From an uncultured Trueperaceae bacterium (GTDB lineage Bacteria; Deinococcota; Deinococci; Deinococcales; Trueperaceae): 64,000 nucleotides of DNA. Position numbers and translations under genes: made by a program. Below the pieces are notes generated by a model, which saw only the letters and a program-made list of their open reading frames with translations, made no database searches and had not been told where the DNA came from. Where the stretch lies: positions 480,001 through 544,000 of the forward strand of contig CAWCXJ010000006.1 of assembly GCA_963799485.1 (NCBI GenBank), written 5' to 3'. Shown in pieces: positions 14,989 through 26,842 of the stretch. Each line of letters opens with the position of its first letter. The stretch's first letter is position 1.

Positions 14989-16097
14989 CAAGTATTTCCG
15001 TAGTAAGCTTGCCAGATGCCAAGTGCGAGGTACATCAAGCTGAGCGAGGAAGAAGACAAGCAGTTGCGTGAGATTGAGCATCAGTCGGGACTGCGCGAGA
15101 AAGTACGTTTACGAGCAAGAATTTTGCGTTTGTCGCACCGTGGGCTGAAAGCTGAAGAAATAGCGAGCTACACGGGACGTGAGTAGCGTGTTGCGCGACT
15201 TCAACCGCTGGGAGCAAAGCGGGGTCGAGGGCCTAACTGAGGGGGTGGGCAGCGGTCAGCGGAGTCCTCTAGGCGAGCAAAAGCTTCTTAACGAAAAAGC
15301 TCAGTGAGGAGCGCAGTTGGACGGCCTCACAGTTAGCTGAAGGGGACGAAGCGTTCAAGCTCAAAGTCAACCGCGAAAGTCAACCGCGAAAGTCAACCGC
15401 GAAAGTATGCGGGTGTGCTTGCACGCAATGGGCTACAGCTGGCAACGCCACCGCTACGTGCCTGTCAAACAGCCTGAAGCTGAGGTTCTAGCGGCTAAAC
15501 AAGCCGAGTTCGACAGCTTAAAAAAAGAGCCCTTCAAGGAGCGCATGGCATCCGCCTGCAAGGTGACATCCTCCTGAAATACCTGGACGAGGTGGGTTTT
15601 AGCCGGTCTTTGCCTTTGAGCTATGGTTGGCGTCCCAAAGGCAAGCCCCTAAACGTTCCCAGGCACTGGGGGGCGGCGGGTCGCATCAACCTCATCGGCA
15701 CTTTGTCCTGTACCCGAGGTACTGAGCAGCTCGCGTACCAAGTGCTTGAAGAACGTTGCTACGCAATCCATGTCAAAACGTACCTGGAAACGTTGGCGCA
15801 AGAAGCAGAGCGTCTAGCCCCAGAAACAGTCGTCATTCTCGACAACGCGGGCTTTCACCGGGCGAATCTCATTAAAGACGAACAGGATGCCTGGGCAGCT
15901 CAAGGGCTTACCCTGTGGTTTCAGCCCTCTTACTCGCCTCGGTTCAACCTCATTGAGACCGTTTGGAAAAAGCTCAAAGGCTTTCTCCTGCCCAGGCGCT
16001 GCTACAACTCTAGACAACAACTCCTGGACGCTGTGCTGGCTGCCCTTCAACTCCTCGGCGCTAAAGCTATCTCGCAGTCATAGTATGGAGATACTTA
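14989..16097 (+). mobile_element. IS630-family element, transposase pseudogene
   Basis: Imperfect TIRs CAAGTATTTCCGTAGTA / TAGTATGGAGATACTTA; HTH N-part from ATG 15016 with premature stop; DDE part YLDEVGF...ILDNAGFH...YSPRFNLIETVW. Confidence 0.88.
15363..15406 (+). repeat. 13-bp tandem repeat AAAGTCAACCGCG x3 (slippage duplication inside dead IS630)
   Basis: Three exact copies plus AAAGT. Confidence 0.9.
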
Positions 16098-16186
16098 AAT
16101 CCTGTAGCAGTAGTTAAGCAGTAAACCGGCACACAATAGAACAGCCCCGCTTATCACGAGGCTTCTTTTTTACGTCCCTCACATTA

Positions 16187-16237
16187 TTTCTTTGGTAGCG
16201 ATGGAGAGACTTGAACTCTCGACCTCACGATTATGAG
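16187..16237 (-). repeat. att site (displaced 3' half of tRNA-Met), left boundary of integrated element
   Basis: 51-bp exact duplicate of 25204-25254, ending at the 7-nt anticodon loop (CTCATAA on minus strand). Confidence 0.95.
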
Positions 16238-16458
16238 GTGTATAAATCCCCTAACGCTTCATTACGCTAGATTACAACAGATGACGAGAGACCGTTACAG
16301 ACGCACTTTTACCCTCTACCCCACCCCTGTATGAATGTCTTATCACGCTACGTAACGCGCCTGTAGGTGTAAATAATGTGTAACTCGCACAGGGACTTTA
16401 TGCCGTGAGAGACGGTAAAAGTATGACGACTCGTGATGTGATGTGGTAACATGTACCA

Positions 16459-16848
16459 ATGACGGCGATAACCCCGGACAAGCTCGAGGCGAATAAAGTA
16501 TTCGCCGAGCGGATTATCGACGCCCAAAGACAAGAGGCCGACGCCGCAAAGCGAAACCTCGAGCGGGTCAAGGCGCAGCGCATCCCGCGTGACTCTGTTT
16601 TTATGCGGCGCTGGGGTTGCAGCTTGCGGCGCGTCCCCTTTTTGTACGGTGCGAACGTTACAGCCGCCGAAGTTGACCAAATTGTCAACGCGGCCCGCGC
16701 TGCTCACCGTGAGGCGATTCTAGAGGCTGGCGCGCTTCTCTTAGAGCCGCCGCCGTCGTGGGCACATGCTGACCTCAACGAGCAGCCGCGCCCCGAATTA
16801 CCACTCAGCAAAACCCCAAAAATACTGCAAAACGCCCCGAATAGCTGA
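16459..16848 (+). CDS. Hypothetical protein (element)
   Basis: 129-aa ORF; extended -10 TGGTAACAT 6 nt before ATG. Confidence 0.6.
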   Translation: MTAITPDKLEANKVFAERIIDAQRQEADAAKRNLERVKAQRIPRDSVFMRRWGCSLRRVPFLYGANVTAAEVDQIVNAARAAHREAILEAGALLLEPPPSWAHADLNEQPRPELPLSKTPKILQNAPNS

Positions 16849-16936
16849 TCAAATGGCGCGGGTTTAACCCGTAAACCTTTTGATCTACCGAAGGTTTGAT
16901 CTTTCGATCATCTTCGCGTTTTGGAGCGTTTTTTTA

Positions 16937-17137
16937 ATGACAACTGAACCGCAGGGCTCGCCCTTTTACAACTACCCAGAACTTTGGATTGCGAACGAAA
17001 AGAAGATCGGCATTAACCAATTGCGCGCCTGGGGCCGGTCAAAGAAACTGAGGACGGTGCGTGTGGGCCGCAGAATCCTTATCCCAAAAACTGAGCTTGC
17101 GCGTCTCGCTGAGATTGCCGGAGGTGACGATTCATGA
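16937..17137 (+). CDS. Excisionase-like (HTH_17/Xis) DNA-binding protein
   Basis: IGINQLRAWGRSKKLRTVRVGRRILIPKTELARL pattern; RBS GGAG. Confidence 0.75.
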   Translation: MTTEPQGSPFYNYPELWIANEKKIGINQLRAWGRSKKLRTVRVGRRILIPKTELARLAEIAGGDDS

Positions 17138-17367
17138 GAAATCCCCATCTTGCCAGAGATGGGGACGCGGCGATTCGTAAGCAGAGTTTAACACGAGGTA
17201 CGTGCTGTAATCCACGTAACTACGTGCGCCCCCGACCCCCAAGCCACCGTGAAGTTTCAAAATGTCAACAAGCAAATCACGTCGCGCTCGTGCGGCTGGA
17301 ACGTTATCTAAAGGCACTTACGGCTTACCGGTACCGCCTCGACAATCCGGGGGTACACCGTGCCTGA
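17134..17367 (+). CDS. Hypothetical protein (element)
   Basis: ATGA overlap with xis and overlap with the AAA gene start. Confidence 0.5.
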   Translation: MRNPHLARDGDAAIRKQSLTRGTCCNPRNYVRPRPPSHREVSKCQQANHVALVRLERYLKALTAYRYRLDNPGVHRA

Positions 17368-18859
17368 ACCCAAAACCCTGGAGGAGTGGGAGGCAGAGCA
17401 GGAAAGGCTCGAGCAAACAAAGGCCCGAAAGACTAAGACGCCCACTCCTAAGCCCGCCGACGATAAGCCTAATACATCCGGTCTCAAAACCGAAAAGCAG
17501 CGTGAGACGAAAGCCAAACCCCAAGCCCTGATTACTCGCTTGTCAGACGTGACCCCTCAGGATGTCTCTTGGCTCTGGCACCCGTATATCCCTCTAGGAA
17601 AGCTCACCCTCTTAGAGGGCGACCCCGGCTTAGGCAAGACGTTTATCAGTTTGACCTTAGCCGCTGCGATTACAAGAGGCTGGCCTTTACTCTCTCAGAC
17701 CGGCGCACCTGGAAACGACCTCGAGCCCGCTGATGTTCTCTATATGAGCGCAGAGGATGGTTTAGCCGACACCTTGCGCCCTCGTTTAGATGCCGCCGAC
17801 GCCGACGTAAGCCGCGTTCACGCGCTCACCGGCTGGCGGCTAGATGACGGGAACGAAGGGGTAGAGGGCGCGGTGAGTCTGGGAGACATCCCCATTCTCG
17901 AGCAAGCTCTCAGCGCTGTCAAACCCAAGCTCATCATCATCGACCCGCTTCAGGCTTACTTAGGTGCGAAAGTGGATATGCACCGTGCTAACGAGGTAAG
18001 GCCGCTTCTCTCAGCTCTTGGCAACTTGGCAGAGAAACACGAGTGCGCTGTCATCTGTATTCGTCACCTGTCCAAAGCTATGAGCCCAAAAGCGATTTAT
18101 AGCGGCATGGGGTCTATCGACTTCGCCGCCGCTGCCCGGTCGATTCTCACCGTAGGGGAACACGACGGCGAGCGCCTGTTAGCGCACGTCAAAAGCTCAC
18201 TGGCACCGCAGGGCAAGAGCATCCGCTACGAACTCCGGGATGGTTCACTCAACTGGTTAGGTATCTCGGATGTGACCGCTGAAGAGCTGAGCGGCCCCCA
18301 AATCCAAAGTGCAGAGGGTGAAAGCACCGTAGACAACGCTGTGACCTTTTTGCAGGACTTTTTAGACGACGGCGCACAACCTGCGAGCGCAGCCTTTAGA
18401 GCAGCGAAGCAAGAGGGTATATCCGAACGGACGTTGAAACGGGCCAAGTCACAGCTCGAGGTCAAAAGCCAAAGGATAAGCGCCGGGAATGACGGCGCGG
18501 GCAAATGGTCATGGTCTCTACCGTATAACAGTGGCACTCTTGCCCCCTTGCAAGCAAACCCTGTCACAGACGCGAATCCCGCAAGTGTGCCAAGTGTGCC
18601 AACTGAAGATGTGGCACTCTTGCGAAAAGAGCGTGAGGCACACAAAAATCCGCAAGAGGGCAAGGGTGCCAAGCTTTTACCCTTAGAGGCTTATGACTGT
18701 TTGCGGAAAAGACTCGAGGCTCAAGACTGGCATGTTCCAAGCGCCGGAAAGCTACGCGACTTCTACCGCCGTGCTGATTCAGGAGACCTAGAAGCGCGGG
18801 GTGCAATTGATGACTACCTACAAAACCCGCAGGTCGTGCAAGCACTTGGGGTCAACTGA
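17360..18859 (+). CDS. AAA_25/RepA-like RecA-fold replicative ATPase-helicase with C-terminal HTH
   Basis: VSWLWHPYIPLGKLTLLEGDPGLGKT, SAEDG, LIIIDPLQ, IRHLSK, GSIDFAAAARS; C-terminal GISERTLKRAK. Confidence 0.88.
   Translation: MPEPKTLEEWEAEQERLEQTKARKTKTPTPKPADDKPNTSGLKTEKQRETKAKPQALITRLSDVTPQDVSWLWHPYIPLGKLTLLEGDPGLGKTFISLTLAAAITRGWPLLSQTGAPGNDLEPADVLYMSAEDGLADTLRPRLDAADADVSRVHALTGWRLDDGNEGVEGAVSLGDIPILEQALSAVKPKLIIIDPLQAYLGAKVDMHRANEVRPLLSALGNLAEKHECAVICIRHLSKAMSPKAIYSGMGSIDFAAAARSILTVGEHDGERLLAHVKSSLAPQGKSIRYELRDGSLNWLGISDVTAEELSGPQIQSAEGESTVDNAVTFLQDFLDDGAQPASAAFRAAKQEGISERTLKRAKSQLEVKSQRISAGNDGAGKWSWSLPYNSGTLAPLQANPVTDANPASVPSVPTEDVALLRKEREAHKNPQEGKGAKLLPLEAYDCLRKRLEAQDWHVPSAGKLRDFYRRADSGDLEARGAIDDYLQNPQVVQALGVN
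18532..18671. repeat. Iteron-like TGGCACNCTTG repeats in both orientations (putative origin)
   Basis: Forward 18532, 18612 (degenerate 18540); reverse 18582, 18591, 18661 (degenerate 18653). Confidence 0.65.
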
Positions 18860-19056
18860 TGCCCCGCGCTAGGAAACTGACACAGCCCCGTCTACTCCCT
18901 CAGCTCGAGCCCATCCGACCCGGCGACGCGCTCACTATAGGCGACCTCATTACGCGCTACGAGTGCCGGTGCGGAAACCGTGCCGAAACAGGAATCCGCC
19001 TGGACGCTGTGACCTGCGTTAAATGCGGTGCGGCGATGAAACCGGTGACATCGTGA
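18859..19056 (+). CDS. Small zinc-ribbon protein
   Basis: CRCG...CVKCG; TGATG coupling to AAA gene. Confidence 0.6.
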   Translation: MPRARKLTQPRLLPQLEPIRPGDALTIGDLITRYECRCGNRAETGIRLDAVTCVKCGAAMKPVTS

Positions 19057-19153
19057 AAACGTACCCCGCCGCTCGAGCCCCGCCGACCGCTAAGCCCCTA
19101 GACCTCACCCCGTTCCTGATCCTTTGATCCCTTCAGAGAAAGTAGAGATTACA

Positions 19154-19450
19154 ATGTCCGAACTCAGCCCATTGCAGGTACAAGCGGCAAAACTGCTAGG
19201 CCGTGGCTACACCCCGACCGATGTCAAAAAACACCTCGAGCTACCCCAAACCCTTTTTGCCCAGTGGCGTGAAGATGACGACTTTAACGCCGCTGTAGAG
19301 CGCGAAAAATTCAACGAGACCGGCGCGATAGAAGGCGAAACTCTGCTCGAGGCTGCCTCAGCTTTCGGAATGCTAGACCCCGGCGCACCCATCATCACGA
19401 AAGACCCGTCAGAGCCAAGCCATTACGATCCCGCAGCGGAGGTTAAATAA
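19154..19450 (+). CDS. HTH protein of phage/satellite type
   Basis: LSPLQVQAAKLLGRG.T..DV...L......QWREDDDF HTH pattern; start MSELSP chosen. Confidence 0.6.
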   Translation: MSELSPLQVQAAKLLGRGYTPTDVKKHLELPQTLFAQWREDDDFNAAVEREKFNETGAIEGETLLEAASAFGMLDPGAPIITKDPSEPSHYDPAAEVK

Positions 19451-20119
19451 TGCCCGCCCTAGTTATCCAAGCACGGCGGGCCGTGTCTGACGCTGAGAAA
19501 CAGCTAGCCGCTCTGGAGAAAGAACGCACGCAGCACGCCGAACAGTTGAGCGTGTGTGAAGCTGAAGAACAGGCCGTTGTTAAGGGCCGGGCCGGTCTCG
19601 ACAAGATCACCGCTGTTGGGTTACGTGCCGACGCCGCCCGGAAACAGCTCGCGCAGACCGAGGCAGATATAGCCGAGTTGCTCGAGCGGCTCCCTGACCT
19701 GTCGGATCAGCTCGAGCGTGAAGAGGTAATCAGTTTACTGGCTACCCATGCAACCGAAGGGGCAGCGTCAGAAGTGCGCTTACGGGACGCGCTGCACAAT
19801 CTAACCGAGACCATCCGGGAGCCTTTACAAAAAGTTTTAGAGGCGCACGCCGCTCACCAAATGGCGGTAGAGCGCTACAACGAACTCGGTAAAGAAGCTG
19901 TACCTGGCTACCGCTACAGTTGGCGGCTACAGCGTACAGGGTCTTAAATGGGATGATCCAAACGATCCCGACCGGAAAGCTCTCGAGCGGGAACTTCAGC
20001 GGCGCGGTTATGACCTGAATGCGGTAGTGGCTCCCTTAGTCAAACCTGCTGTAGACGACACCCTTGCCTTTGCGGTCTGGCAGCTCTACCGAAGCACCAA
20101 AGATTTGAGGGGACTCTAA
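19450..20119 (+). pseudogene. Coiled-coil protein with an apparent 1-nt frameshift near 19921
   Basis: ORF stops at 19947 but a 65-codon open frame from 19922 ends in TAA 20117-20119 coupled (TAATG) to next gene. Confidence 0.6.
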
Positions 20120-20634
20120 TGCCCCGCACCTGTAGTGTTTGCGCTCACCCGGAACGTGTTGCAATCGAGACGGCCCTGCTTGAAAATGCGCCATTACGCG
20201 ACATAGCGCGACAATTCTCAGTTTCCAAAGATGCGGTAGCGAGACACAAAGAAAGCCATATCACCGCCCGTCTAGCTTCAGCTCATGCGGCTCAAGAGGC
20301 GACTGACGCCGGTACGATTATGGACAGACTCCGGGCTTTGAACGCTGAAGTTACCGACCTGCTACAAATTGCAAAAACGGCCCGGAACCATGAGCTGAGA
20401 TTAAAGGTTCTAACACGGGCCGAATCCCAACTTGCGCTCGAGGCCAAGCTCTTATCGGAACAGCCGCTCTTGGAGCGTCAGGTCAACGAGCTTTTACAGA
20501 TCAAGATGGTTGAGGCGCTTGTCAGGCTCCGTATCCACTTCGGAGATCAGCCGGGGCTACTCAGGGAAATCTACACGGCGTTCGTAGGTGATGAACCCGC
20601 CGGACACGCGGGCCAGCGTCAGCTACCAAACTAA
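20119..20634 (+). CDS. CxxC + HTH protein, possibly terminase small subunit-like
   Basis: MPRTCSVCAHPER..IETALL..APLRDIARQFSVSKDAVARHK then helical region; function inferred. Confidence 0.55.
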   Translation: MPRTCSVCAHPERVAIETALLENAPLRDIARQFSVSKDAVARHKESHITARLASAHAAQEATDAGTIMDRLRALNAEVTDLLQIAKTARNHELRLKVLTRAESQLALEAKLLSEQPLLERQVNELLQIKMVEALVRLRIHFGDQPGLLREIYTAFVGDEPAGHAGQRQLPN

Positions 20635-20831
20635 GTAGCCTGATCCTGTTACCACGACGCGCTACCGCTCACCCGGCGCGTCGCTAGTATTCCGTAAGTC
20701 CTTGAAAAGCTAGAGCTAGCTCCAACAATCGTGCTGTTGACCCCAGCACGATATTTAATATCAGTGCTAAGCTTTGTCAACTAAACTGTGAAGAAGGCAT
20801 GATTTGATTTGATGCATAATTTAGGAGAGGA

Positions 20832-22043
20832 ATGACGGCTCAAACGCGACGACGGGGAGAATTCAGAGTTGAGTCGCGTGCTCAGCTATTTGATCTGTTG
20901 CAAGACGTTATGGACGTCTCTTACTCTCACCTTCTTGAAGGTCGCCGCCTCGAATATGAAAGAGGGTTGCTTAAAAGCTACATACTTGAGACAGACCTAT
21001 TTCGAGATGAAGAAAAGCTCAGCAATGAGAAGAAGGTCAAGCAATTCATCAAACAGTCCCTGACACCAGAAGCCAAAGCTCGAACCCTTATTACAATTCG
21101 AGAAACAGATGAGGAAAAGTTCTATGAGATCGAATGTACAACCAACAAGCACCAATCGACTATCTACCTTGATGCAAGCACGGATGATAGGTTTTGGCTA
21201 GCCTATTCGATAAGTAATTCGACATCTACTGATTGGTGGTTGGATAGGGTTGTTTCCACGAACCCAAACATAGACTATGCATGGCTGTGGCCTCGGTTTC
21301 TAGAAGGCGTACAACAGCGAGGTCTCCCGCGTGGCTTTGGGCTGGATTATGACTACAGAAGATTTGAGGAAGAGTCAGAAGTAACGAGCTACATCAAAAT
21401 GCAATTATGGGGCGGCGCGGATACCGCAGTAGTTTATGAGACGCTCAAAGGCTTGCGAGAACTCAATGGCAAGATCGTCCTATCTAAAGTGAGGGTTAAA
21501 TCCCTTAGAGATGACGATATTGAACCAGAAAAAGAAAATTTGCATTTTGCTTTAGAGGATATTAAATATACTGGCAAGTTTACGGTTAGGGGAACTGACT
21601 TTGGTGTTCACAACAGAAACCTAAATCGTGTTCGTGCTAGCTATGCGGAAATTGTACGCAGTGTAGAAAATATGTGTGGGCTCAGTTGGGATGTAGACCA
21701 AACAGGTGGAGTTATCCTAGATGGTTACGCAATTAACTTCATTCCGCAAAACCTGACTCTGGATGTTTTGAGCTTCTGTGAACGTGTATTTAGTGGTAGT
21801 CTTCCGTTTCGGCTATTAGGCATGATCAACCTGAAGCACGATAACTACGCAACAGTCAACGTAGTGGATATGCATACAGGAGGAAAGCTTTTCTTTGAGA
21901 TTTCGCCTGATTTAATAACGGTTTATCTACCAAGTGCAACTTGTGGAAATACCATCGCTCGCTTGTATACAAATTTGCAACACTATTTGAATTCCAATTT
22001 TGAGGTTGAGGCAGACAATGGACAAAGACTCTTTCGATTCTGA
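20832..22043 (+). CDS. Uncharacterised 403-aa cargo protein (candidate defence gene A)
   Basis: Long intact AT-rich ORF, RBS AGGAGAGG, upstream extended -10 TGCTAAGCT; no family recognised. Confidence 0.85.
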   Translation: MTAQTRRRGEFRVESRAQLFDLLQDVMDVSYSHLLEGRRLEYERGLLKSYILETDLFRDEEKLSNEKKVKQFIKQSLTPEAKARTLITIRETDEEKFYEIECTTNKHQSTIYLDASTDDRFWLAYSISNSTSTDWWLDRVVSTNPNIDYAWLWPRFLEGVQQRGLPRGFGLDYDYRRFEEESEVTSYIKMQLWGGADTAVVYETLKGLRELNGKIVLSKVRVKSLRDDDIEPEKENLHFALEDIKYTGKFTVRGTDFGVHNRNLNRVRASYAEIVRSVENMCGLSWDVDQTGGVILDGYAINFIPQNLTLDVLSFCERVFSGSLPFRLLGMINLKHDNYATVNVVDMHTGGKLFFEISPDLITVYLPSATCGNTIARLYTNLQHYLNSNFEVEADNGQRLFRF

Positions 22044-22956
22044 CCTAGTTAATTTATTTATTGCACTTTGTAAAGGCTCGAGAAGGCTCAGGCCACACGC
22101 AGAGAAGTTCAGTAGAGAGCTTGGATATAAAGTCTTTAGATTCGAGCCAAAATTTCCGCTCAAAAGTGGAGGATACAGTTCCCCAGATCTTATCCTTCAT
22201 TCAAAAACTTTAGGCAACGCCCTTGTCATGGAATGGACTCGGAACTCTAATATAAATACAGACGAGCGCAAGCAAAATCAGCTGAGCAAATACGTAAGGA
22301 TGGGATCGGACGATCTGCGCGAGAACGCAGGGATGCCAGCAACTTCAGCGAAGATGCATAGCGTCATAGTTGTTTTAGAACCCGCATCTTGTAAGGCTTA
22401 TATATCTTTCCTCTCAAAGCAAGGGTGGACACTTCCTGTTATGTCGTTCTTGACAGACGGCAACAAACGTACTCTAGTTAAGCAAGCGCACCATATATTG
22501 GAACCTCGCACAGAAGAATTTTTCAGGAATCATCTTGAATTCAGTGACATACCTGAAGGCTACATACCCTTCTCACTACAACACATACGCCTCTCCGATC
22601 TCGTTGAGTTAATCACTAATCACCTGATAAGTTTGATCATAAAAGGAGAAACGAAGCGCGTTGACATTGACCGGTTTTGTGAGGGATATCTTACTGGAAG
22701 CTTCAATATTTTCAAACACTTAGGTCACGAAAAAAAGATGGATCTAAGAAATAAAACTGTGAGGATCCTTCAGATTATTGCCCAAGATGAAAAAACTAGC
22801 GATCTAATCTCTCGAACTGGTAGAAAATCGGACACCTGGGAGTTGCTTGATAGAAAGGATTTTCAGTCAAAGTATTCTTTTTATCACAGTGGGCTGATTG
22901 CTATCGTCAATAAGATAAAAGACAATAATCCTATACAGGGTACTTTGTTTGACTGA
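22018..22956 (+). CDS. Uncharacterised cargo protein with PD-(D/E)xK-like N-terminus (candidate defence gene B)
   Basis: Overlaps gene A by 26 nt; PDLILHS...VMEWT...NQLSKY; ends QGTLFD. Confidence 0.8.
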   Translation: MDKDSFDSDLVNLFIALCKGSRRLRPHAEKFSRELGYKVFRFEPKFPLKSGGYSSPDLILHSKTLGNALVMEWTRNSNINTDERKQNQLSKYVRMGSDDLRENAGMPATSAKMHSVIVVLEPASCKAYISFLSKQGWTLPVMSFLTDGNKRTLVKQAHHILEPRTEEFFRNHLEFSDIPEGYIPFSLQHIRLSDLVELITNHLISLIIKGETKRVDIDRFCEGYLTGSFNIFKHLGHEKKMDLRNKTVRILQIIAQDEKTSDLISRTGRKSDTWELLDRKDFQSKYSFYHSGLIAIVNKIKDNNPIQGTLFD

Positions 22957-23008
22957 AAGGAGAAGCAACTAAATGAGCTCACGTTGACATGCGCTATTCA
23001 CTTGACCA

Positions 23009-23046
23009 CAAAAAGACCCCCGACGCTAAACCGGGGGCTTGCTTTG
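23009..23046. terminator. Probable bidirectional intrinsic terminator
   Basis: CCCCCG-loop-CCGGGGG hairpin with an A-tract on the left and a T-rich tail on the right, between convergent genes. Confidence 0.6.
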
Positions 23047-23286
23047 AATTGTAAGTTTAACTAAGTGCCTCGAGCGCCTCTAGCTTCAGAGCACACGTTT
23101 CAACTCGCGTCTAGCAGCGTTCTCTACACATGCCGCTGCTAGACGTTCAGCCTGACTACTTTGACCTAACGCTGATACCTGCCTATGAAGGGCTACAGCT
23201 CCGATAGCGGGTTACTGCCCGATCTACAACCTCTTCAGGGGCAAGATCAAAGATCATTGATCCAGTATTTGCAGAGGTATTCAAGC

Positions 23287-23568
23287 TCATGCGGCGACCG
23301 CCAAAGTATTTACAGCCGGGACAAGGCTGTGAACCTCATCCCAGACGCCGTAATCGACCCGCTGCACAGAAGTCTCAAAAGCGTAGCGGTGTACCGGAAA
23401 AACGACCTCATCACGCTTTAGGTCAGCTAAGGCGACGCGTCGGTTTACTTTGTCGGCGCTCTCGATGATGGCGTAACCAAAGGTGAGGGTGCTCGAGACC
23501 GCTGTGATAATGCCGAGGCCGCGCACCGTTGCGCCTAAAAGTTTGGTTTGTCTGGGTGTATTCTGCAT
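23287..23568 (-). CDS. Hypothetical protein divergent from repressor (possibly truncated)
   Basis: ATG downstream of a TTGACA-N17-TATCAT promoter. Confidence 0.5.
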   Translation of the reverse strand: MQNTPRQTKLLGATVRGLGIITAVSSTLTFGYAIIESADKVNRRVALADLKRDEVVFPVHRYAFETSVQRVDYGVWDEVHSLVPAVNTLAVAA

Positions 23569-23626
23569 TTGGAACTTCGTTTCTAGCTAAGGGATAACTT
23601 TGGACGGTTGCCCTTAGCTGTCTGTA

Positions 23627-23668
23627 ATGATAACAATTATTGACAGTGGTGTCAATATCGTATACCAT
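23627..23668. promoter_or_regulatory. Overlapping divergent sigma70-type promoters with palindromic operator
   Basis: Plus TTGACA(23640)-N17-TACCAT; minus TTGACA(23655)-N17-TATCAT; palindrome TATTGACAgtggTGTCAATA. Confidence 0.7.
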
Positions 23669-23675
23669 GTCTAAT

Positions 23676-23918
23676 ATGGGAATGAACGAAAACATCAGAC
23701 AAACGGTGCGTAACACCATGAACGCCAAAGACGTAAGTACCTACAAACTGGCAGAGCAGGCTGGTATGTCTCAGCCCAACGTGGCGCGCGCGCTTACCGG
23801 ACGATCCGGGAGTATCCCGACAACGTGGCAGCGCATCTTGGACGCGTTAGGGCTCGAGCTGGTAGCTGTACCCAAAGGAACCGACGTAGCCAAGCTTTTG
23901 GCAGAGAGAGAGGGGTAA
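23676..23918 (+). CDS. XRE-family HTH repressor
   Basis: STYKLAEQAGMSQPNVARAL...WQRILDALGLEL; start choice among nearby ATGs uncertain. Confidence 0.85.
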   Translation: MGMNENIRQTVRNTMNAKDVSTYKLAEQAGMSQPNVARALTGRSGSIPTTWQRILDALGLELVAVPKGTDVAKLLAEREG

Positions 23919-23920
23919 CG

Positions 23921-25114
23921 ATGGCGAGACGTAAAAGCACACGGCGCGGTAAGGGTGAGGGTTCTGTATTTGAGTTTGAACGTAACTATAAACAGAAAGA
24001 CGGCTCTATCGTTGTCCGTACCGGTTGGGAGGGTAAGGTCACAGTCGGTTATGACGAAAACGGCAAGCAGCGTTTTAAGAGCGTGTACGGCAAAACGCAG
24101 GGTGAAACACTGGCTAAAGTTGCCGAGATTAAACAGCGGCTCGTAAATGGCACCTATACGGATGTCAAGCTCACTGTCGGCGAATACTTAGAGCAGTGGC
24201 TAAAAGAGAAAGAGCGTAGTGTCAAACCGCGTACCGCGATGCTCTACCGGGAGCAAGCCGAGCGGTACGTCATTCCTAAAGTGGGTAAGGTCAAGCTCGA
24301 GAAGCTCACGCCCTTACACCTTCAGCGGATGATTAGCGAGTTAGCTGACGAGATCGGCATACCGACAGCAAACAAGGCCCGTACCCTTATGTTTGCCGCG
24401 CTAAAACAGGCGGTACGGTGGCAACTCATTCACCGGAACCCGTGTGAAGCTGTTGCCAAACTAAAAGAGACCCGGAAAGAGATGATTCTATGGACGCCCG
24501 CCGAAACCGTACAGTTCTTAGAAGCGGCTCGACCTCATAGACTTTACGCCGCGTTCTATCTGGCTGTGTTTGCCGGGTTACGCCGGGGTGAGCTGCTAGG
24601 TTTGCGCTGGAAAGACCTCACCGGCCCGGTGCTGAGCGTTCGTCAATCCCTCACCGTCTTAGGTGGTACACCTCACTTCACGACCCCCAAGACGCGCAAG
24701 GGGGAGCGGTACGTCACCGTCTCCCCTGACGTGCTCGAGGTACTCGCACAACATCGGCTGATTCAAGAGGCAGAGGCTAGGGCGCTGGGCGATGCCTGGA
24801 CAGATACGGGGCTCATCTTTACAACCGAGATCGGGACGCTGATTCACCCCCGGAACTTTGAACGCAGTTTCAAGGGACTACTGAAGGATGCCGACGTAAC
24901 TACGGCCCGGTTACACGACCTGAGACACCTACACGTCTCGCTACTCGTTTCTAAGGGGTTTGACCCGCGCTCGATAGCCGACCGGGTAGGCCATACGAAC
25001 CCAAGCTTTACGCTCGACGTGTACAGCCACATGTTTGCGAATCAGCGGGCACAGGCCGCTGTAGGGATGGCTGACCTACTCGGCACGGGCGCACAACAGC
25101 GGGAAACGAACTAA
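23921..25114 (+). CDS. int: Tyrosine recombinase/integrase
   Basis: N-terminal GEGSVF arm-binding region; GLRRGELLGL, PKT, HDLRH, VGH, DVYSH catalytic motifs. Confidence 0.96.
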   Translation: MARRKSTRRGKGEGSVFEFERNYKQKDGSIVVRTGWEGKVTVGYDENGKQRFKSVYGKTQGETLAKVAEIKQRLVNGTYTDVKLTVGEYLEQWLKEKERSVKPRTAMLYREQAERYVIPKVGKVKLEKLTPLHLQRMISELADEIGIPTANKARTLMFAALKQAVRWQLIHRNPCEAVAKLKETRKEMILWTPAETVQFLEAARPHRLYAAFYLAVFAGLRRGELLGLRWKDLTGPVLSVRQSLTVLGGTPHFTTPKTRKGERYVTVSPDVLEVLAQHRLIQEAEARALGDAWTDTGLIFTTEIGTLIHPRNFERSFKGLLKDADVTTARLHDLRHLHVSLLVSKGFDPRSIADRVGHTNPSFTLDVYSHMFANQRAQAAVGMADLLGTGAQQRETN

Positions 25115-25209
25115 AATCCTGTAGGTGTAATTAAGGTGTAAACTGGCACACAAGAGAAGCGCCCCACACTTAGCGGGGCTTCTTTTTTGCGTCTCTGACG
25201 TTGTTTCTT

Positions 25210-25286
25210 TGGTAGCGATGGAGAGACTTGAACTCTCGACCTCACGATTATGAGTCGTGCGCTCTAACCAGCTGAGCTACATCGCC
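25210..25286 (-). tRNA. tRNA-Met (CAT), probably elongator; integration target
   Basis: GGCGATG...CACGA-CTCATAA-TCGTG...GTTCAAGT...CATCGCTACCA cloverleaf. Confidence 0.95.
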
Positions 25287-25406: not shown

Positions 25407-25645
25407 CAGGGCAACCGCAAAGTCGGCGGTGTAGCTTGGTGAATGACCGAACGAGACTTACCCGAACTGCTCAAGGACTTTGCGGACTTACCCGAATCCC
25501 TGTGACCCGCGCGGGATTCGGCATGAGCTGGTGGACACTGTGTGCATCAACATTTTGGCGGTCGTTTGTGGAGCCAACACCTATAGTCAGATACATCAGT
25601 ACGCGTTGGCGCAAGAGGTTTGGTTGCGGGAGTTTCTGACGTGAC
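25407..25645 (+). mobile_element. ISAs1-family left end and transposase N-terminal remnant
   Basis: CAGGGCAACCGCA terminus; frameshifted MTERDLPELLKDFADLP / DPRGIRHELVDTVCINILAVVCGANTYSQI...WLREFL. Confidence 0.75.
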
Positions 25646-25672
25646 CCCCGAGACCCAAGCCAGAAAGGCTGT

Positions 25673-26842
25673 GAGTACACCATCAACTAAGATTTGCGAC
25701 ATTTGTGGTAATGCCTGGCAAGGGTGTCGCGGGCGGCATCGGTAGAGAACTGCCAGGTGACGGTCGCGCGCTTAGCGTTGCGGTCGCGGATCCAGGCGAG
25801 GACTTCGTGCTCACGCAGAGCCTGGTCAGGAATGCGGCGAGCAAGACACTGTTTGGACAAAGCAGAGAACTCGATCGTGTTCAGCCAACTCGCGCCTTTA
25901 GGGGTGAAGTGAAAGGCAAAGTGCTCGGCTAGCGCAAAGGCGTCGTCGGGGGGCAAGTGGGCGTAGAACGAGCCGCCCTGATGGGTGAGATGGCCCTGCA
26001 CCAACTCAAGCTGTTCGGCCTCGGGAAACTGCGGTTCAAGGTGCTGCATGAAGGCGGTGTACTCTTTGGCCGTGCGGCGCTCGTAGACTTTCGCCCAGCG
26101 TCTGCCGGTGGTAGGCTCGAACGCCAGCGCACACGAGCCGTGTTTGGTGTAGTGGTAGTCCTCTCGCTTGGGCTTGCCCGAGGTCATTGGCAGCGGCACG
26201 ACCGCCGCGCCAATCAAGAAGCAGGGGCGTTCGTCGAAACATGATGACGGGACGTTTTGGATTATAGGGCCGGGCGTAGCGCGCCAGGGCCCCCTCCATC
26301 CGCCGGAGAAACAGCGGCGTGATCTCGCTCAGGCACCATTGCCGCTTGCGGTGCGGCGCGAGTTCGTTTTTTTCAGCACCTCGCCGACCGTGACGTGCGA
26401 GATCGTCTCGACACAACCCAACGCAACCGCTTTGTCCGCCAGCAAGCGCAAGTCCCACCAGGCACGCCCCGCAGGTGCCGGGCTGCACGCCGGCGCCGTC
26501 AACTTCGCCCGCACCTCACCGTCGAAGGCGTGAAGTCGTCCTGGCTGTGGCTGCTCCCGAACCGCCGCTACGTCCTCAACCCCGTAGCGACGGCGGATGC
26601 GGCTCACCGTCGCCCGGCTGACCCCGACCCGTTCGATCACCTCGGCGTCCTTGTGGCCTTCATCGACCAACAGCAGGATACGCGCTCGTACTCGTATCTG
26701 TGACCGCAGGAAATCCTTTAGGGTACTTCCCCCTGGCGCGTCAGCGTCTCTAGCTCGTGGCGTTCCTCCGGCGCTAACTTGACCTCGTAGAGCTTCTTGG
26801 GTAGCCCTCGGTATAATGCATTCCTTGCCTAACGGTGTACTA
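25673..26842 (-). mobile_element. IS630-family element, transposase pseudogene
   Basis: Ends (G/T)AGTACACC; fragments WDLRLLADKAV...LKKNELAPHRKRQWC, FHFTPKGASWLN..E, WQFST..AR. Confidence 0.85.

Follow-up and report, generated by a model that had tools for sequence, protein, structure and literature searches.

The genes of phage-inducible chromosomal islands (PICIs) usually run from one end in the order integrase, regulators, replicase and packaging, and P4-like satellites carry Psu, Sid, Delta and the alpha primase-helicase. We analysed an integrated element of 9,068 bp (between repeat ends) in an uncultured Trueperaceae bacterium; it lies in a stretch of 64,000 nucleotides, here called the window (G000:C6:480001-544000, where G000 is the host genome and C2, C3, C4, C6, C7 and C8 are contigs of it). 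For the phages lambda and P22, the N-terminal part of the small terminase (TerS) is described as reading DNA and the C-terminal part as binding the large terminase (TerL), and a lambda/21 TerS chimera separates DNA specificity from TerL specificity, according to PMC9026076 and PMC9611059. What is new in this analysis is that the TerS of the window element, judged from its sequence, is a chimera of a family-type front and a prophage-type tail. The explanation that we favour, and hold to be slightly the more probable, is a PICI-like satellite whose capsid-less ancestral family encodes TerS and a split TerL, but which itself now depends on the TerL of a helper.

The original prediction had placed a TerS-like packaging module at 19154-20634. 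This was borne out for 20119-20634, a CxxC-helix-turn-helix (HTH) gene whose family is syntenic with TerL, and not for 19154-19450, which was tried as a second TerS and showed no match to TerS profiles (hhalign 0.6-1.6%). Among the best 80 metagenome loci, the N-terminal TerL part (TerL-N) lay directly 3' of the CxxC-HTH gene in 65 and not in 2, while 13 were cut (65/67 informative); many of these 80 loci share a few record prefixes and are not independent. Seven of nine genome loci, drawn from several phyla, had the same order. In the genome G001, a TerL ATPase gene (Terminase_6N, E 8e-11 and 7e-9) and, apart from it, an RNase H-type gene (Terminase_6C, below cut-off) come after each of two CxxC-HTH relatives. 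Gene 33 of Thermus phage Riverbug (L124:8520-9002), which is 33% identical (E 2e-18), overlaps an unsplit TerL and sits with it ahead of the portal and head genes; in phages, a family member was the gene directly before TerL both in Riverbug and in the portal-bearing viral loci L037, L067 and L090. Because the relatives adjoin TerL on its upstream side in metagenome, genome and Riverbug loci, 20119-20634 is assigned by synteny as TerS, and Riverbug gene 33 is likely a TerS as well. In the Riverbug record, gene 33 is entered as hypothetical and the TerS label stands on gene 31, after TerL. The assignment puts a name, CxxC-HTH TerS, on a common unannotated phage gene family. The structural model of the window protein comprised an HTH and long helices in a helical hairpin (pLDDT 76), the layout sought for a small terminase being an HTH, a helical hairpin and a variable C-terminal part. 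With this model as query, Foldseek found no match in the PDB or the viral libraries at E <= 0.001, and a wide fold search returned generic helical hairpins only, with the 44RR TerS tied among them (Z 7.6, root-mean-square deviation 2.4, 70 aligned). The complex prediction with four copies of the protein gave no answer (score 0.23).

A helper prophage had been proposed as something to look for, and two related tailed prophages were found in the genome (G000:C2:1-59000 and G000:C3; L240, L243-L246). By PHROGs, both contain TerL, major head protein and portal or scaffold, and the C2 prophage also a tape measure; TerS was taken as the gene directly before TerL on each contig. The two have near-identical TerS and TerL (417/445 residues) and different head modules, and their TerS proteins agree at 55/56 positions of the tail and 94/112 of the remainder. 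By eye, a serine-recombinase-like gene stands at one end of the C2 prophage; the C3 prophage has no integrase on its contig. Pfam searches of the genome had given no match for TerL (PF03237, PF03354) or for portals (PF04860, PF06074, the latter without a positive control), and these negatives were misleading: a capsid search and a profile scan then revealed both prophages.

The TerS of the window fell into two parts. A profile of 106 TerL-coupled TerS aligned to it and to its relatives P0002-P0004 only up to residue 114-116. It grouped with these three in the TerS tree (100/100, long stem), and the resulting clade of four was placed weakly (89/77) beside the TerS of L005, a sister element in G001 at the same tRNA. 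Within the clade, residues 1-114 were 58-87% identical. The window tail was 53-58% identical to those of P0002-P0004 and only 13-20% to those of L005, L006 and Riverbug (15% for L005), and the P-[EQDA]-W motif, present in 79 of the 106 TerL-coupled TerS, was found in none of the four clade members. With the TerS tail of the C2/C3 prophages, on the other hand, the window tail shared 40% identity over 35 ungapped residues. When a profile of the clade tails was run against 52,969 six-frame segments of the genome, the C3 and C2 TerS were the top two non-self matches (E 0.021 and 0.023; next 0.9), and they were still on top when the window tail was removed from the profile (E 0.22 and 0.23; next 1.6); the usual family tail as profile query did not recover them. 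By hhalign, clade tail and phage-type tail matched at 93.5% (E 2.2e-7), against 0.3% for usual tail with phage-type tail and 0.2% for clade tail with usual tail as controls. The four clade tails had local scores of 58, 54, 48 and 34, while 99 usual tails reached 22.5 +/- 3.0 (maximum 35). Furthermore, only the tail aligned (64.8%) when whole proteins of the window clade and the prophages were compared, and sliding windows located the crossover near residue 111-120. By these comparisons, residues 1-114 are of the family type and residues 115-171 resemble the TerS tail of the prophages.

Several points weigh against this reading and against the helper drawn from it. The similarity of the tails extends over only about 40 residues; as a single phmmer query, the window tail reached E 3.2-3.4 (ranks 4-5 with self), the prophage-tail profile met the window TerS at E 4.6 (29,042 segments), the P0003 tail is marginal and was beaten by 25/2000 shuffles, and the clade-tail profile was built after the match had already been noticed. 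The window gene itself has no Pfam or PHROG TerS match. In the prophages, the TerL frame begins within the stretch that encodes the TerS tail, and this overlap alone could explain the conservation of the tail. The DNA of the window and prophage tails is only 50% identical, so the C2/C3 prophages are not a recent donor of the tail. Viral, metagenome, genome and family searches found no locus for P0002-P0004. No packaging site shared by the element and the prophages was detected (best 15-16 bp, E 0.2-0.8), and contamination of the assembly amounts to 4.63%, so that C2, C3 and C6 may come from different cells. Docking of the window TerS to the C2/C3 TerL would follow by analogy with other phages, and the same TerS and TerL families also occur in true phages. 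Finally, genome G025 has a TerS whose tail is related, and the full-length TerL after it has no BLAST match to the C3 TerL, and the tail type is therefore not one-to-one with the TerL family. The G025 loci (L258:6705-8559 and L259:7278-8775) are elements riddled with insertion sequences (IS), in which a phage-type TerS accompanies a full-length TerL of another family and, by eye, no head genes are present.

Such loci bring in a second explanation, that an ancestor with its own terminase acquired, in one exchange, a new TerS tail and a phage-type TerL, and that this TerL was later deleted, leaving an orphan TerS in a decayed satellite. L258 and L259 show just such a pairing of related tail and full-length TerL (L259 also with an L005-like primase), and the window copy has other lesions, namely a frameshift and the lack of a primase. 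No TerL remnant was found after the window TerS at E <= 1, however, and stop codons within and just past the tail interrupt the overlapping frame; a terminator-like hairpin follows TerS, and four of the seven relatives bounded by attachment (att) sites in the host family f1 also have no TerL. The missing remnant and these four relatives speak for the favoured explanation. We consider the decay explanation unlikely, though of some weight.

The chimera could instead act as a packaging decoy, binding the prophage TerL or entering its TerS ring and blocking phage packaging, with poor packaging of the element itself. Packaging inhibitors are known from satellites and prophages, such as Rpp (PMC6739421), Gpi (PMC11417361) and TerI (10.1101/2025.02.27.640495), and the two TerS families are remotely alike (125 columns, 77.8%), but the DNA-binding end is intact, at 58-87% in the clade, and a pure decoy would presumably not need it. 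A decoy therefore appears improbable to us.

For the helper-dependent satellite, which the original prediction had already suggested, the synteny of TerS with TerL, the lack of head and tail matches among the ORFs (open reading frames) scanned in the seven relatives and the presence of two tailed prophages all speak in favour. The element is integrated at an anticodon loop, has the gene set listed below and no TerL, and carries the chimeric TerS in a genome with two prophages of matching tail. As to induction, binding and packaging, we infer the following course. The 83-amino-acid repressor would keep the element silent until induction of a helper, whereupon excisionase and integrase would excise it; the AAA_25 helicase would copy it, the host or a sister element supplying the primase. 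The CxxC-HTH end of TerS would bind the packaging site of the element, the replaced tail would dock to the TerL of a C2/C3 prophage, as suggested by the division of TerS in lambda and P22, and the element DNA would be pumped into helper heads. The cargo pair would be carried along, probably as a defence module. The element may then be a natural record of a packaging switch within a widespread capsid-less family, in which the last 57 residues of TerS were swapped for a helper-type docking tail and the motor was dropped; the tail would name the C2/C3 helper, and this would be the first candidate satellite-helper pair found in Deinococcota. We put this forward tentatively, at somewhat less than an even chance.

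Relatives of the element were compared across the phylum. In the host family f1, a TerL ATPase (E <= 1e-30) was present in 8/127 genomes and split in all of them; in family f4 it was present in 5/68 and unsplit. Seven repeat-bounded relatives of 7-16 kb were identified in f1 (L005, L125, L130, L134, L136, L247, L248), at several tRNA or other sites and with the same layout, the integrase (mostly with a repressor) at one end and the replicase and small genes reading from the other. Three of the seven have a split TerL with a TerS-like gene, the ATPase half being interrupted in L130. Head or tail genes were found in none of the seven among the open reading frames (ORFs) selected for scanning (11/20 for L247 and L248, long ORFs cut to 330-400 residues). 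In these scans, the close relatives show no virion module or relaxase of the kind that was named as evidence for a deleted prophage or an integrative mobilizable element (IME).

That the element is a phage remnant after loss of all late genes is nevertheless an explanation to be weighed. The same TerS with split TerL occurs in true phages, and head or portal matches were obtained in 15 of 41 split-TerL viral loci with at least 3 kb downstream as opposed to 9 of 12 fused ones, the scan covering the first one or two large ORFs and their first 330 residues; L012, an element outside the phylum, carries a major head gene. A deleted prophage is at variance with the intact integrase, arm motifs and both att sites, and with the 0/7 head or tail matches in relatives of the same layout at several sites, and we regard it as very improbable. 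Slighter still is the probability that the element is moved by conjugation or natural transformation, its TerS being a relic or a regulator: integrase, excisionase and helicase would suffice for excision and copying, but no relaxase match was obtained in the Pfam and PHROGs scans (oriT was not searched), and the relatives retain a complete terminase set.

The split of TerL was tried as a mark of satellites and was ruled out, the best 80 viral loci being 60 split, 16 fused and 4 cut; it is an inheritance from phages. Uncultured phages (L026-L105) with Mu-, SPP1- and other portal types commonly encode the ATPase and the nuclease of TerL in two genes, and no paper on it was found by title or abstract start. 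The nearest cultured phages to the TerL ATPase of the family are Riverbug and the Meiothermus phages MMP7/MMP17 (46-48%). Among the sister elements, L136 (G000:C8:27737-40368, 12.6 kb) sits at another tRNA(CAT) and has a primase, AAA_25 and the Zn-ribbon, together with a second TerS-like type (the gene preceding the split TerL in L126-L132) and no TerL. L247 (L247:4111-11455, genome G066), a 7.3-kb repeat-bounded relative, has a primase, a helicase 50% identical to that of the window, a coiled-coil gene of the same family and no TerL; a 235-amino-acid gene in it resembles, by eye, a third TerS type and has no PHROG match. In L005 (14838-17930), a SMODS nucleotidyltransferase with a SLATT effector, resembling a cyclic-oligonucleotide-based antiphage signalling system (CBASS), and a ParE-type toxin-antitoxin pair lie between two integrase modules.

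The features of the element and its borders are as follows (positions of the window; a dot means that no strand is assigned).

16093..16186, dot: putative remnant end of a sister element, with a degenerate arm motif at 16101 and a hairpin at 16143-16163, cut on the left by IS630
16187..16237, dot: left attachment repeat, carrying the displaced tRNA 3' half; exact 51 bp
16360..16383, plus: arm-type motif of two GGTGTAA-like units 11 bp apart, also in L005; putative integrase arm site
16459..16848, plus: ORF of 129 amino acids in no Pfam/PHROG family, last 27 residues 59% identical to L005
16937..17137, plus: excisionase-like HTH (xis), HTH_17 E 3.5e-4, under the Pfam cut-off; 82% identical in L005
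17134..17367, plus: doubtful ORF of 77 amino acids, only its first 25 codons common to L005, where the primase comes next
17360..18859, plus: AAA_25 helicase-type replicase without primase domain, AAA_25 E 3e-36
18859..19056, plus: Zn-ribbon protein, with a 75% identical copy in the C8 sister element; also in L005 and L007
19154..19450, plus: HTH-like protein of 98 amino acids, single relative found (P0138, 70%)
19450..20119, plus: coiled-coil gene, frameshifted near 19910-19950, second piece ending on the TerS start
20119..20460, plus: TerS residues 1-114, CxxC-HTH and helical hairpin, 53% identical to L005 TerS; profile E 3e-37
20461..20634, plus: TerS residues 115-171, apparently replaced tail resembling the TerS tail of the C2/C3 prophages
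20728..20752, plus: terminator-like hairpin after TerS, from a consensus scan only
20832..22043, plus: cargo gene A, 403 amino acids, widespread family PF25924, 96 relatives
22018..22956, plus: cargo gene B, 312 amino acids, near PF27326 (MJECL32), Atlas 0.95-0.96
23287..23568, minus: gene of 93 amino acids divergent from the repressor, 68% identical relative in sister element L136
23627..23668, dot: back-to-back promoter-like sites, consensus match only (11/12 and 10/12)
23667..23918, plus: Cro/CI-type repressor, 83 amino acids, PHROG repressor families (best E 1e-8), HTH_31 E 2.6e-5, under the Pfam cut-off
23921..25114, plus: intact tyrosine integrase, 397 amino acids, Pfam Phage_integrase E 9e-18, phrog_1; the L005 integrase, which uses the same tRNA, is 90% identical
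25118..25141, plus: arm-type motif, with the same exact 13-bp sequence as at 16360
25204..25254, dot: right attachment repeat, exact 51 bp
25210..25286, minus: intact target tRNA, anticodon CAT; the genome has three CAT tRNAs in all

The borders agreed with what had been predicted. Both copies of the 51-bp repeat are exact, the tRNA(CAT) is intact, and the repeat takes in the anticodon loop together with the tRNA 3' half, its identity beginning at tRNA position 33, the first base of the anticodon loop (the anticodon is at position 35). Such an edge is as expected of a tyrosine integrase that restores the tRNA gene. The arm-type motif CCTGTAGGTGTAA occurs exactly only at 16360 and 25118 within the window, and this 13-bp motif (CCTGTAGGTGTAA) is retained at either end of L005, with a single mismatch in one of the two copies; the GGTGTAA-like units may serve as arm sites of the integrase. 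Leftward of both repeats an imperfect homology extends for 94 bp (145 nt at 85% to 25110-25254) and includes the third, degenerate arm motif at 16101. The adjoining IS630 copy (~15001-16097; DDE_3 match) has a 99.5% copy on C4, and 16093-16186 may be the end of an older sister element severed by it. L005 likewise has an integrase remnant to the left of its repeat. Arm motifs with one mismatch and integrase remnants were also noted beside other tRNA genes (C4:173611, C7:490534, C8:81108; also window 16101), and their presence at several tRNA genes points to more than one round of colonisation by this integrase clade. Just past the tRNA, at 25480-26670, come another IS630-type element and a short piece of a transposase. 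No empty site emerged from synteny: G002 and G005 have the tRNA without the flanking genes of the window within 20 kb. The sequencing reads covered (one DNA run, 0.05 share) held a few short exact pieces inside the element and no joints among them.

All of the ORFs named in the original prediction are present, the integrase and AAA_25 above Pfam cut-offs, and the scans (17 proteins in Pfam, 15 in PHROGs) likewise gave no match for head, tail, TerL, lysis or relaxase genes. The coupling of genes by overlapping stop and start codons, also described there, holds in that the second piece of the coiled-coil gene joins the TerS start, and fails for its first piece, the gene being frameshifted. Four of five relatives (P0132, P0133, P0135, P0136) match both pieces as a single ORF, and the frameshift could be an assembly error. 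The coiled-coil family was also found upstream of packaging genes in L130, L125 and L247; an identity with Psu was considered and not adopted, as it is a weak lead only (Atlas 0.89) and five relatives gave no Pfam match. A primase was not found in the window element by domain search. Of its four nearest helicase relatives among 364 genomes of the phylum, L134 is a 784-amino-acid Prim-Pol fusion and L247 has a separate primase; none was identified for the other two. With the frameshift and without a primase, the window copy may be impaired.

Two gene sets had gone without mention, the low-GC cargo pair (20832-22956; GC 0.42 vs 0.56 in the core) and the conserved 93-amino-acid gene (23287-23568, minus). 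The cargo A model (pLDDT 87) gave no clear fold match (best Z 8.1, root-mean-square deviation 5.6, 206 aligned), and a PD-(D/E)XK-like motif was noted by eye in cargo B. PADLOC gave no match to a known defence system for the pair, and no viral locus was found; from its position, a defence module would be a guess. The density of CTCGAG, which had been put at or above that of the host, was ordinary at 2.32/kb vs 1.98/kb for the genome, and 111/397 9-kb windows were as high. The left core has 15 copies, equalled by 29/803 windows, and the C2/C3 prophages have 1.9-2.05/kb. The long residence deduced from this site is unsupported at such a density, and CTCGAG was discarded as a residence clock.

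If TerS tails track the TerL that is recruited, helpers could be predicted by matching tails, where finding them is now mostly experimental, and three small proteins would suffice to test whether TerS-only satellites arose from ancestors with a complete terminase. Satellites would also be extended to a phylum for which a literature search gave none. Should the tail be no more than a relic, the window element is a damaged member of its family. No paper on Deinococcota satellites or split-terminase satellites was found, most subscription papers being outside the search, and none of the papers listed described this family in its title or the opening of its abstract; 'Deinococ' is absent from the main text of the satellite survey PMC10085698, and among the matches listed for chimeric TerS in satellites only PMC9026076 uses the term.

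In comparison with known systems, the element is closest in plan to the PICIs and SaPIs (Staphylococcus aureus pathogenicity islands), as these appear in PMC10085698: it has about 9 kb against a PICI median of 9.5 kb, and an integrase, regulators, a replicase and its own TerS with cargo after it and no other virion or lysis genes. Set against the PICI core set, the integrase is present (Phage_integrase E 9e-18, phrog_1), and so is TerS, by synteny and homology, in a family without a Pfam or PHROG model. For the regulation module (alpA, merR or stl) there are Cro/CI-type and HTH_17 matches below Pfam cut-offs (SatelliteFinder profiles were not run), and for the primase-replicase module an AAA_25 helicase, the primase being found in relatives and not here. 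Unlike in PICIs, no capsid-morphogenesis gene was found in the element (Pfam, PHROGs), a gene of the core set that SaPIs also lack (PMC10085698); the repressor and integrase stand at one end and xis, replicase and TerS start from the other, all on one strand; and relatives carry TerL. The element would work like a PICI, yet it is not filed as one, since the capsid-morphogenesis gene and the usual gene order are wanting and the evidence on regulators and primase is equivocal. Capsid-forming PICIs (cf-PICIs) are described in PMC10085698 as tRNA-island satellites that encode TerL, as do the relatives of the window element, but also as having their own heads and head-tail joining proteins; none of these was found in the element or in the seven att-bounded relatives, as far as their ORFs were scanned. 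Without its own TerL, capsid, portal and head-tail genes, the element is not a cf-PICI. None of the marks of P4-like satellites had a Pfam/PHROG match in the element, Psu being represented only by the 0.89 Atlas lead for the coiled-coil gene. Riverbug has the same CxxC-HTH gene before TerL; Riverbug and MMP7/MMP17 are complete phages with an unsplit TerL. Rpp of Escherichia coli PICIs (PMC6739421) and Gpi/GpsA/GpsB of PICI-like elements (PLE, PMC11417361) are also satellite proteins that redirect or block the packaging motor of the helper. Rpp binds the helper TerS and may have no TerL-binding tail, according to PMC9026076, whereas the window TerS has a full helper-type tail, a distinction drawn from the descriptions. 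The nearest parallel to the protein itself is offered by the lambda/21 and P22-group chimeric TerS, which likewise join N-terminal DNA-binding and C-terminal TerL-binding parts from different sources; according to PMC9026076 and PMC9611059, these are phage hybrids of other TerS families with binding tested, whereas the window chimera belongs to a putative satellite and its binding would follow from its likeness to them.

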